Below the pieces are notes generated by a model. The model saw nothing but the letters and a program-made list of their open reading frames with translations. It did no database searches and was not told the origin of the DNA. Position numbers and translations under genes: made by a program. A stretch of 64,000 nt of DNA, taken from NCBI RefSeq assembly GCF_028641065.1, contig NC_073385.1, positions 59,830,001 to 59,894,000 on the forward strand, read 5' to 3'. Origin of the DNA: Leucoraja erinacea. Taxonomy: Eukaryota. This document shows, one piece after another, positions 537 to 34,596 of this stretch. Numbering within the stretch: the stretch's first letter is position 1; each line of letters starts with the position of its first letter.

Positions 537-707
537 ATGGCAACCACACAGTATGGCCAACGTCCCAAGTACGACAGCGGCGAGAATGATGATTATGAAT
601 CGACGACTTTAATCCGCTGGAACAACTTCGAATTTTGTGGATTTAGTTTGAAGATCGCTCGAATGATGGATTCAAGATTGGGTATCTCCTCGTATATTTG
701 GGACGCG
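537..707 (+). CDS. Paralog A coding exon 1 (57 aa)
   Basis: ATG at 537 in aaATGG context; ends ...SYIWDA, followed by a gtaagt donor at 708 (phase 0). Confidence 0.88.
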
Positions 708-3700
708 GTAAGTCCATTGCGTTAGTCGTGTAGAGAAACAAGCTAAATATAATGCCACATATCTTATCAGTTTAGCGGATTCATGTTATCCTTTTCTTCC
801 TGTTTTCTGTTACTATGAAATACATTTCCTGAAAAAAAAGTCTAACAAGCACATCAGAGATAAGATACCGCGCATACGTCCCACGAATTATAAAAACATA
901 TTATTTTTAACCTATCAAGTGCCTTATGTTGAGGGACTTTTCTGCAGAAAAAAAAGGTGAAATTATCGATCAACCTGATAATCACGTATCATCATGCCTA
1001 GCCTGCATTTCCACCCGTTACGTCCCCGCCGACCCCCCTTACGATTTCACGCATGTGATCCCAGCTGCTAATTGAACATCAAGCCCCAGCCCCGCACTAA
1101 TTTCCGACGCTCGCGGTTTAACAAAAAGGCATCGCATTAGTAAACATCGTCGATGCACAGGTCACACGAAGAATAGGGCAAGGCCCACTCCCCTTGCATC
1201 TCTGTATCACGATGTGCAGTTGCGTCCGATGTGCGGCCCATTCATCGAGCCGCCCATTCATTGACGAAAGGTGCGAGAGAGATGCTCCCAATTGTTTTAA
1301 GCGTGTTATGGAGATATTCAGCCTAACTCCATCCTAAATTGTAGGCGGGCGAACCAATCCTCCCTCCTCAGAATCTATCACAGAGTCAACCACTGAAAGC
1401 TATCACAAAGATGAACCGGAATTGCGCTCCATTTATTCCGCATTTGTTAGATAGATTCCAATTGCCCTGGCCAACCCCCTTCCGTTTAACCTAAACTGGC
1501 TGCTGAAATGTCCTTACATCATTCGGGGGGATTAAACTTTGAATGATCTGAATTGGTGAGACGCTTTGAGATATCCTTGTGCTGTGGAATGTTCTCTGCA
1601 AACAGACCTTAAAAGAAGGTCAGCCCCACACTCATTTGTCTGGATTAGGAAGTAATCGGAGTTCCTCTTTCAACTGTCTTCTTTAATCTCTGCAAATCGT
1701 TATTTGATCTAACTTCCACAATCTAATAGTTGAGCCTTCATGTTTCCAACCTTTTCAGGGCGTTTCTCTTTGCCAGTACTTTGAGAAGGAGGACGTCAGT
1801 TTCACTGGGAAGAAAGTGATTGAGCTGGGATCCGGCACTGGAATCGTAGGCATATTAGCAGCTCTGTTAGGTGAGTGTCAGCTTCCGTTAATCAGATGTT
1901 ATTGCTGAATGGGAGATCTGTCAATGGCTCGACGGGATGATTTCGTATGTGACAATTCGCGTTCAATTCCTTTCCGATTTGGGAAAAATAATTTCCTTAT
2001 TGTAAGCCTTTCTTCGTTCAAAAGACGTTGAAGCGTCGGTTAATCTGTAGCAAAAATGTCACGATGTAACTGTTGATATTCGGCAACAGTTCAATGGAAA
2101 AGGAATACCTCCGGGTTTATATTTGAAACATTGCAGTTTGGTAAAGCTGTTGCCTAATGATTCGGTTCTGAATTCCACCGGTACTTGTCTTTGATTAGGA
2201 TGCTGCTTAATCTGGTCATATTTCAAATGTAAAACAAGATAACTTATCTTTACGATTGAATCGATTACCATAGAAACAGGCCACTTGGCCAAACTCGTTC
2301 ATGCCGACCATTGGGCACCTATTGCCCAGCACCTGGTGCATAGCCCATCACAAACTATACGATTCAATGTTCATTCAGCCACTCCCTTAGTCAGTGCAGG
2401 CGAGATACGCACTGTCATCTGGGTGGTGATGGTCCTTCTCATATCTATTTTGAATCTATTCCCCCTTCGCCCATGTATTCTAGTTTTATCTACCTCTGCT
2501 AAGGGGACACTTTTCCTGCAGTCTTCTCTCTACACTATGTTTAGAGATCCAGCTGAGAAACAGGTCCTTCGGCAGTTCGGCCCACCGAGTCCATGCCGAC
2601 CATCGATCTCCGTTCACACCAGCTCTATGTTATCCATTCTCTAAACACTAGGGGCAATTCAACCTGTACATCACACATATTTTTATTTTTAATCTCTTCC
2701 TTTCTAGGGTCAACGACAAACCTTCTCGAGTTTTTCCTCACAACTGAACTGCTTCACCCTAATCAATATCCCGTGAATCTCCGCAATACCCTTTCCAGCG
2801 CTATCAAACCCTTCTTAACTCATGGTGAACAGAAATGCACGCAGTAACCCATCTGAGGTCTGACCAAGATGGTAAAAGTAGGAGTGTAACCTCCTACTTT
2901 TGCATTCAATTCACCAACTAATGAAGGCGAGTGCTCGGTATGCTATCCAAACCACGTTGTCAATCTGCATTGGATCGAAGGTCCCTCTGTTCCGCAAAAT
3001 TCTCCAAGACCCTGCCATGGTGTATATCCCAGCTTCATTAATGCTCGTAAAATCCATCACATCACATTTATCTAAATTGAACACCAACTGTTATTTATCT
3101 ACCAATTTCGCACTGTCTCTCCACAGACTTAGACTATCTTGTGTAAGATCGACAACTCGATCAGTTTCGCACCAGCAATACCCACTACCAGCAATCATAG
3201 AAACATAGAAAATAGGTGCATGAGGAGGCCATTCGCCCCTTCGAGCCAGCACCGCCATTCATTGTGATCATGGCTGATCGTTCCCTATCAATAACCCGTG
3301 CCTGCCTTCTCCCCATATCCCTTGACTCCACTAACCCCTAGAGCTCTATCCAACTCTCTCTTAAATCCATCCAGTGATTGGGCCTCCACTGCCCTATGTG
3401 GCAGGGAATTCCATAAATTCAGAATTCTCTGGGTGAAAAAGTTTTTTCTCACCTCAGTCTTAAATGACCTCCCCTTTATTCTAAGACTGTGGCCCCTGGT
3501 TCTGGACTCGCCCAACATTGGGAACATTTTTTCCTGCATCTACCTTTCCAGTCCTTTTATAATTTTATATGTTTCTATAAGATTCCCCCTCATCCTTCTA
3601 AACTCCAGTGAACACAAGCCTAGTCTTTTCAATCTTTCCTCATATGACAGTCACGTCATCCCAGGGATCACACTGCACTGCCTCAATCACAAGGATGTCT

Positions 3701-34100: not shown

Positions 34101-34596
34101 CAATGTCAAGTTGTCTTTAACCTATACCGTCGAGATTTTACTCCCCCTGGTGACACGAGAGACTGCAGATGTTGCAATCTAGAGAAACAAAGAAAACTGC
34201 AAAATAATATTCGATAGGACAGGCAGCATCTGTGGTGAGAGAAAAAGACTTAACATTTCAGGCTGTGAACCTTTAGTCATCAGATGAAAATGCATCTTGT
34301 TGAAATAGAGTTCTGACTTTTTTCTGATTTGCTGCGCGTTATTTCAGGTATTCGGCACCTGCCTGTTGACCTCTGGTAAAGGTAACACATGGGAAACTCG
34401 GCAAACTCCAGTCGTTCAGTTAACTTACAGCTTCCCAGACGTAGGCCGAGAAGCCGAGGTTCGCATTGATGAAACGAGCGATCTTTAAATTGTATCCGCA
34501 GAACTCGTATTTGTTCTCGAATATGACGGTGGGATCACTTGCCCCGTCCTTGGCGGCGCAGTCGCAGGGCGGCTCCACCCGTCGGACAGCCGACAT
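30742..34596 (-). CDS. EEF1AKMT3: EEF1A lysine methyltransferase 3-like (METTL21B-like) paralog C; complement(join(30742..31154,32282..32393,34429..34596)), 230 aa
   Basis: 168+112+413=693 nt open frame: [100 protein letters not shown]; canonical GT-AG sites on the minus strand. Confidence 0.92.
31490..32080 (+). mobile_element. HERO/NeSL-like non-LTR retrotransposon 3' fragment (restriction-like endonuclease), antisense in intron 2 of paralog C
   Basis: Reading through one TAG gives [74 protein letters not shown], a PD..ExT/K RLE signature. Confidence 0.75.
32282..32393 (-). CDS. Paralog C coding exon 2
   Basis: ttatttcag|GGG GTC GCT CTT TGC...CTT G|gtaagt; 112 nt. Confidence 0.93.
33118..33830 (-). 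mobile_element. CR1 LINE 3' end in intron 1 of paralog C
   Basis: 172-aa ORF 33282..33800, CR1 ORF2 C-terminus. Confidence 0.9.
34429..34596 (-). CDS. Paralog C coding exon 1 (56 aa)
   Basis: ATG at 34596 (aagATGT); ends GAA GCT|gtaagt. Confidence 0.88.

Follow-up and report, generated by a model that had tools for sequence, protein, structure and literature searches.

An old, chondrichthyan-wide expansion of METTL21B-like lysine methyltransferases in the little skate genome, with predicted new targets

Within a 64,000-nucleotide (nt) stretch of the little skate genome (Leucoraja erinacea, NCBI RefSeq assembly GCF_028641065.1, contig NC_073385.1, positions 59,830,001 to 59,894,000 of the forward strand; hereafter the window), we found three complete genes, A, B and C, which resemble METTL21B, also named EEF1AKMT3, the methyltransferase of Lys165 in eEF1A. 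A six-frame motif scan combined with tblastn found all three intact, and their products belong to methyltransferase family 16, the seven-beta-strand lysine methyltransferases. The genes are part of an expansion that is chondrichthyan-wide and old, not skate-specific, and none of them is an ortholog of EEF1AKMT3. The enzymes are predicted from their sequences to be active, and it is probable that most of them have left eEF1A Lys165 for other targets. A first-pass annotation, made from the letters of the window alone, had described an old, selectively kept, lineage-specific expansion. Its observation was right, and larger than reported: the lineage comprises all cartilaginous fish, and the copies in this genome number at least 16, not three.

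Genes A, B and C and their family in the skate genome

The exons lie as follows in window coordinates; the same scan of the window returned these three exon sets plus one stray exon piece.

537..707, + strand: gene A exon 1, with the start codon, the first substrate loop and the lysine-cage Trp; identical to P0001
1759..1870, + strand: gene A exon 2, 112 nt, with motif I, which binds S-adenosylmethionine (SAM)
4910..5313, + strand: gene A exon 3, with the post-I Asp, the DXXY motif, the second and third substrate loops and the stop
16044..16169, + strand: gene B exon 1
17324..17435, + strand: gene B exon 2, 112 nt, acceptor with G at -3
20272..20666, + strand: gene B exon 3
34429..34596, - strand: gene C exon 1, identical to P0020
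32282..32393, - strand: gene C exon 2, 112 nt
30742..31154, - strand: gene C exon 3

The predicted proteins are 228 (A), 210 (B) and 230 (C) amino acids long. All introns are GT-AG, in phases 0 and 1 on either side of the 112-nt middle exon; there are zero stops and zero frameshifts, and motif I, the post-I Asp, the Trp-Gly motif and the DXXY motif are found in A, B and C alike. The gene models agree with the first-pass description of three intact three-exon genes (+,+,-) with equal phases, a 112-nt exon 2 and these motifs. Its estimate that A and C are about 60-65% identical in exon 3, with B more distant, also held on measurement: exon-3 identity is 83/131 for A/C, 64/130 for A/B and 57/130 for B/C (135/226, 104/206 and 96/209, respectively, over the whole proteins). 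The introns had been called dissimilar, which is true in general, except that dispersed-repeat pieces are common to them; these are the only sequence shared among the six. Genes A and C encode P0001 and P0020, letter for letter, which are little skate proteins labeled EEF1A lysine methyltransferase 3-like by NCBI. Scores against Pfam PF10294 are 113.5 bits for A, 115.5 for C and 49.3 for exon 3 of B alone, with a cut-off of 21. Among the window's 44 long reading frames, the nameable ones are these exons and retroelement pieces.

A genome search with exon 3 of A, followed by gene modelling, gave 26 scored candidates, of which 20 were kept (16 METTL21B-like, one METTL21A-like and three METTL21C/E-like). 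All 16 METTL21B-like matches extend to uninterrupted three-exon genes, with the start codon left unfixed for three of them, and genome copy counts are lower bounds. Seven of the genes form a cluster at C9:59.78-59.91 Mb, on the same sequence as the window, in strand order + - + + + - +, with genes 4 to 6 inside the window. The first-pass suspicion that the cluster reaches left of the window was well founded, as three further genes lie there; one more lies to the right. The remaining copies are at C9:59.14 Mb, on C14 (three), on C27, on C6 and on three small scaffolds.

At C9:66.26 Mb (G000:C9:66255130-66267397, L062-L063) there is a 17th copy, with exons 1 and 2 intact and exon 3 full of frameshifts. 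Its Amblyraja ortholog, P0100, is intact, and the frameshifts may be due either to recent decay or to low-quality sequence at this place. A METTL21D-like gene (C9, 66.49 Mb) is located about 230 kb away. Besides this gene and the 16 copies, the other METTL21 genes found were METTL21A on C7 and METTL21C/E-like genes on C6, where a METTL21C/E-like last exon is followed after 4.5 kb by a second, tandem copy with 96% identity (G000:C6:72142658-72147571).

By the method of Nei and Gojobori (NG86), the ratio of nonsynonymous to synonymous substitution rates (dN/dS) among A, B and C is 0.14, 0.22 and 0.26, with dS at 1.7-2.2, near saturation, and it is below 0.34 in all 45 of 120 copy pairs for which it could be computed. 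Orthologs are 70-89% identical across sharks and rays; over the same five species pairs, identity is 73-87% for A and 78-87% for the canonical gene. These values support the view that the genes are old and selectively kept, with A and C orthologs about as conserved as the canonical gene. A dN/dS near 1, which the first-pass annotation had named as evidence against itself, was not found.

Phylogeny and the canonical EEF1AKMT3 locus

A profile of 19 relatives retrieved 1,933 proteins from 8,000 scored candidates, and the 120 listed are from sharks and rays throughout. Distinct members retrieved per species, with the canonical protein included and near-identical sequences merged, number at least 18 in Heptranchias, at least 14 in Heterodontus and at least six in chimaera, where three of the proteins probably come from one cluster. 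In a FastTree phylogeny of 320 domains, restricted to those covering profile positions 40-205, A clustered with sequences from eight further species of sharks and rays, C with three rays within a shark-ray clade of 20 members, and B inside a 33-member clade. An IQ-TREE analysis of 90 hand-picked sequences placed 83 of them in a METTL21B clade against METTL21A, C, D and E, with an ultrafast bootstrap support of 92 (bootstrap not converged); in a 50-sequence tree this split had a Shimodaira-Hasegawa-like approximate likelihood ratio test (SH-aLRT) support of 100. IQ-TREE grouped A, C and their left neighbor at 100 and joined the B group to two chimaera proteins at 100. Because the link between B and chimaera was not directly recovered in the 50-sequence tree, we regard the A/C and B lines as likely, not firmly, older than the chimaera split. 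The expansion itself is old and chondrichthyan-wide, since both rays and sharks hold orthologs of A and of C, and chimaera has about six paralogs, two of them near the B clade. The shark-ray split is placed at more than 270 million years ago (PMC11979771). The family is also still expanding in some lineages: within the dispersed subclade, the P0115 cluster comprises at least 15 near-identical recent Heptranchias copies and the P0128 cluster several in Rhinoraja.

In the IQ-TREE phylogeny the canonical clade (support 66) contained no gene of this skate genome, and the chondrichthyan paralogs formed a clade with support 83. In approximately unbiased (AU) tests on the 50 sequences, a sister relationship to the canonical shark and ray proteins was rejected for A (p = 4e-6), B (p = 0.0012) and C (p = 5e-6). 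A recent, skate-specific expansion with A, B and C as a single clade was 195 log-likelihood units worse and likewise rejected (AU p = 3.7e-5). One-to-one orthology with METTL21A, C, D or E, which would have told against the first-pass reading, was rejected on the tree and the genome search; these genes sit elsewhere in the genome. Forcing all 40 chondrichthyan sequences into one clade gave a likelihood 8.3 units higher (AU p = 0.72), and in the free trees the canonical sharks joined bony vertebrates with weak support (66). On these sequences, a duplication before the bony-fish split with later loss there is not required; a first duplication on the chondrichthyan stem would be the simplest history, with its exact timing less sure.

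In human, EEF1AKMT3 lies between METTL1 and TSFM. In the skate, METTL1 and TSFM are on C40, about 39 kb apart, and the window genes are on C9, where a calpain-3-like gene is the left neighbor of the cluster and a SNAP-25-family gene lies at 59.19 Mb; in human, too, CAPN3 and SNAP23 lie close together. On the right-hand side, a search of the 150 longest among 304 non-repeat flank reading frames gave no neighbor gene. It follows from the AU tests and from this location, beside calpain 3 and not between METTL1 and TSFM, that A, B and C are not orthologs of EEF1AKMT3, as the first-pass annotation had thought. They are 49-54% identical to the canonical shark protein, compared with 76% for the canonical ray protein.

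Between METTL1 and TSFM, the skate has a lone 159-nt canonical exon 1 with an intact donor (G000:C40:7448356-7448514, L026). It is identical to the sawfish canonical protein at 42/53 positions, and Lys replaces the canonical Asp after the cage Trp. Canonical exons 2 and 3 were not found in 120 gap-free kb at C40 by tblastn or by a ten-protein canonical profile at maximal sensitivity, and whole-genome searches with one shark and one ray canonical query found no canonical EEF1AKMT3. Complete canonical proteins turned up in seven sharks and in Mobula, Hemitrygon and Pristis, whereas the three skates that occurred among the hits yielded none. The canonical gene has likely been lost in skates, with local mis-assembly as the alternative.

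The NCBI entries for canonical EEF1AKMT3 in several sharks and rays are listed as isoforms of TSFM (P0114, P0269, P0386, P0151 and P0382). In one Heterodontus model the first exons of TSFM are fused to exon 3 of EEF1AKMT3, an arrangement suggestive of interleaved genes; in the skate, the relic exon 1 lies upstream of TSFM. Kiwi, rhea and emu have EEF1AKMT3 proteins (P0317, P0328 and P0344) that group with those of crocodile and other reptiles; the gene is reported as absent in birds (PMC5416902).

Three eEF1A loci were found in the skate. With numbering fixed by the reported 156-167 peptide (PMC5416902), Lys165 is kept at C5 and C21. The third gene (G000:C26:17625709-17626299, L081) has Asp at this position and so cannot carry the METTL21B mark. 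The substrate thus showed no co-expansion, only three loci having been found.

Catalytic core, substrate loops and competing explanations

The reported METTL21D-p97 structure has a SAM pocket, a lysine cage of Trp43, Tyr147 and Val38, an acidic Asp144 and three loops around the substrate loop (PMC10339199), and Asp44 in the first loop is described as required for binding (PMC10339199; PMC9942839). We transferred these positions to the family through alignments, which gave 11 core, 30 loop and 150 other positions. All 11 core residues, from motif I, the post-I Asp, motif II with its D/E-X-X-Y/F and the cage Trp (motif names as used in PMC5416902 and PMC10339199), are present in A, B and C, and they are identical to the canonical enzyme in 15 of the 16 copies; the remaining copy has Asp to Glu in D/E-X-X-Y. 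Within nine paralog groups, identity is 0.78 in the loops and 0.78 at other positions. Between the groups it is 0.36 in the loops and 0.55 elsewhere, and between the groups and the canonical shark and ray gene it is 0.32 and 0.56. The control comparison, canonical sharks with bony vertebrates, runs in the opposite direction (loops 0.65, rest 0.57). The loop contrast has a block permutation p of 0.0006. Canonical-conserved loop residues have been lost at 9/17 positions in the A group, 9/17 in the B group and 8/17 in the C group; outside the loops, A has lost 6/65, and some copies retain part of the canonical third loop.

An AlphaFold model of A, the one protein modeled, has a predicted local distance difference test score (pLDDT) of 85.5, and its ten best Foldseek hits are all structures of METTL21B, A, C or D. 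The best match in both sequence and fold is METTL21B (PDB 4QPN; PMC5416902), with an E value of 1.6e-53 and a root-mean-square deviation of 1.0 Å to the human enzyme. A, B and C share with METTL21B the subfamily clade, the core residues and the borders of canonical exon 1. They differ from it in lying beside calpain 3, in the replacement of conserved loop residues and in having many copies versus one; METTL21B is reported to occur in vertebrates only and to have a single target (PMC5416902).

A, B and C are likely to be SAM-dependent protein lysine methyltransferases, each ortholog group with its own target. Early in chondrichthyans, a three-exon gene copy would have left the METTL1-TSFM site, inserted beside calpain 3 and then multiplied via tandem and dispersed duplication of DNA; retention of the introns argues for DNA duplication and against retroposition. 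By analogy with METTL21D-p97, SAM would bind at motif I, the post-I Asp and Trp, the target lysine would enter the Trp/Tyr cage and be held by the DXXY Asp, and the three surface loops would select the target protein. Loops that were altered soon after duplication and then fixed would be the trace expected of a change of substrate. The loop pattern speaks indirectly in favor of the new substrates suggested by the first-pass annotation, for enzymes whose activity is predicted. The usual targets of the family are reported to be chaperones and translation factors (PMC10238732).

A number of observations weigh against this reading. The loop borders were set after the alignment had been viewed, and the loops were defined from METTL21D, not METTL21B. 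The nine paralog groups were chosen by eye from the tree and are related by descent, so the tests on them are not independent, and the deep nodes of the phylogeny are weak (66 and 83, from an unconverged bootstrap). Gene B is the weakest of the three, because it has no database twin among the retrieved proteins, its best relative there is 70% identical, it has changed 8/80 clade-conserved positions (0 and 7 in its two cluster relatives), and its exon-2 acceptor, with G at -3, is weak and the sole such case among 17 modeled genes; B also sits on a long branch. Furthermore, four raw RNA runs with masked tissue labels, each from a different study but sharing one species label (about 5,990 million letters in all), gave signal from repeats only over the stretch of A and B (window positions 600-20599). 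Read depth was 0 in every bin holding A exon 3 or an exon of B, in a comparison that included no positive-control gene, and at most 0.07 in those with A exons 1 and 2, so that there were practically no exon reads. No exon joint of A or B was among the higher-ranked joints, 485 lower-ranked ones lying outside that set. Spliced transcripts of A and B, whose absence the first-pass annotation had named as evidence against itself, were not seen in these four runs. This argues against broad expression of A and B; silence does not follow, and expression is probably restricted to some tissues or states. That the copies are silent or decaying duplicates, or an assembly artefact, would fit these RNA runs, the frameshifted exon 3 of the 17th copy and the weak acceptor of B. 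We consider this the least probable of the explanations, given that frames and splice sites are intact despite near-saturated dS and that orthologs remain 70-89% identical from sharks to rays; haplotype duplication is implausible because the copies are merely 46-60% identical to one another.

The canonical gene is reduced to exon 1 in this skate and apparently lost, yet two eEF1A genes retain Lys165, which counts against a general move to other targets and fits a paralog still serving eEF1A. Copies would in that case have divided the old job, methylating eEF1A at Lys165 or nearby according to tissue, stage or stress, and some would replace the canonical gene in skates. Human METTL21B is reported to be stress-inducible and tissue-variable (PMC5416902), and the part of the canonical third loop kept in some copies points the same way. 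However, in the better-sampled species, sharks hold the canonical gene plus at least 6-18 retrieved family members, there are only three eEF1A loci in the skate, and loop residues conserved from shark to mammal were replaced and then fixed in each group. We therefore hold such a division of labor to be unlikely.

It is quite improbable that the family serves host defense under birth-and-death turnover, with copies methylating pathogen proteins or host factors used by pathogens. The speed of one dispersed subclade (15 near-identical members in one Heptranchias cluster, several in Rhinoraja) and the long branches of the dispersed skate copies would suit it, but A and C form stable groups of orthologs, about as well conserved as the canonical gene, and dN/dS stays below 0.34 in every computable pair. 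Sharks, rays and chimaera store urea and methylamines, and the expansion spans all three, with an early start and retention since, so that the family might cap exposed lysines against urea-derived carbamylation or methylate small amines. The coelacanth too stores urea, however, and it yielded one canonical-type protein. The lysine cage and DXXY motif are of the type found in protein-specific enzymes, and the fixed, group-specific loops indicate narrow targets; we rate a role in urea physiology below even host defense. Equally doubtful is its fullest form, in which more than ten private lysine methyltransferases would cap lysines for high-urea life, as a carbamylation shield or for stability tuning, and skates would then have dropped the eEF1A-Lys165 enzyme. 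Enzymes that have mostly exchanged eEF1A Lys165 for targets of their own remain our preferred reading.

Other features, related systems and significance

Upstream of C lies a small rearranged copy, which is not a gene:

35664..35893, - strand: 155 nt 95% like the C intron 1 repeat, joined to an exact 79-nt copy from C exon 1

Its pieces are in swapped order with a few common bases at the joint, and it may be a small templated insertion or an assembly artefact. In the window and its vicinity (window 52545-55181, L032:2924-5290 and L079:4880-5110) there are endonuclease/reverse-transcriptase frames of the long interspersed nuclear element (LINE) type, as well as a short match to a retroviral integrase C-terminus, right of the cluster.

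METTL21A, C, D and E (listed targets Hsp70, AARS1 and VCP; PMC10238732) have the family (PF10294) and motifs in common with A, B and C, and the METTL21 paralogs are described as sharing one fold with differing targets (PMC9942839), which provides a precedent. In contrast, A, B and C are only 35-38% identical to the skate's METTL21A. A similar expansion in teleosts was rejected, because the METTL21B clade does not include the multi-domain teleost proteins that scored high. These METTL21C-like proteins, with 2-6 domains each in piranhas, anchovy, sardine and catfishes (P0122, P0123, P0124, P0129 and P0143), resemble the skate family as an independent fish expansion in the METTL21 subfamily, with up to six domains per protein. 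They differ in forming a clade with METTL21C-labeled proteins, far from METTL21B, and in repeating the domains inside one gene model; they may be a separate expansion or fused models of tandem genes. In primates, FAM86 (eEF2-KMT) is reported to have gone from a single-copy family-16 methyltransferase to 16 sequences in one lineage (PMC10238732). Those copies are described for higher primates only and are mostly pseudogenes, whereas the skate-family copies predate the shark-ray split and are nearly all intact.

A literature search, with much subscription literature outside its reach, found no published account of the expansion, nor of the loop pattern or the apparent canonical-gene loss in this skate. 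The text and one supplement of a survey of METTL evolution (PMC8662637) do not mention sharks or cartilaginous fish. The main text of a whale shark paper contains no methyltransferase; in its supplement the EEF1AKMT3 orthogroup has 92 proteins from 28 taxa, with an identifier absent from those of the other supplement files that could be read. Neither a genome paper on the catshark nor a transcriptome paper on the dogfish had a match in its main text. NCBI labels nearly every copy EEF1AKMT3-like, a name that is misleading for these genes, and such automatic naming conceals the expansion.

In human, 16 seven-beta-strand lysine methyltransferases are counted, for most of which a single target is listed; a 2023 review gives no obvious uncharacterised remainder (PMC10238732). 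The METTL21B-derived enzymes of one skate genome are thus as many as this whole human set. From the family one would expect protein methylation in sharks and rays that is so far unknown, and this skate, having apparently lost the canonical gene, would be a natural knockout for eEF1A Lys165 methylation. With a single catalytic core and differing, evolutionarily fixed loops, its members form a natural series that may show what determines target choice in METTL21 enzymes and how they gain new targets.

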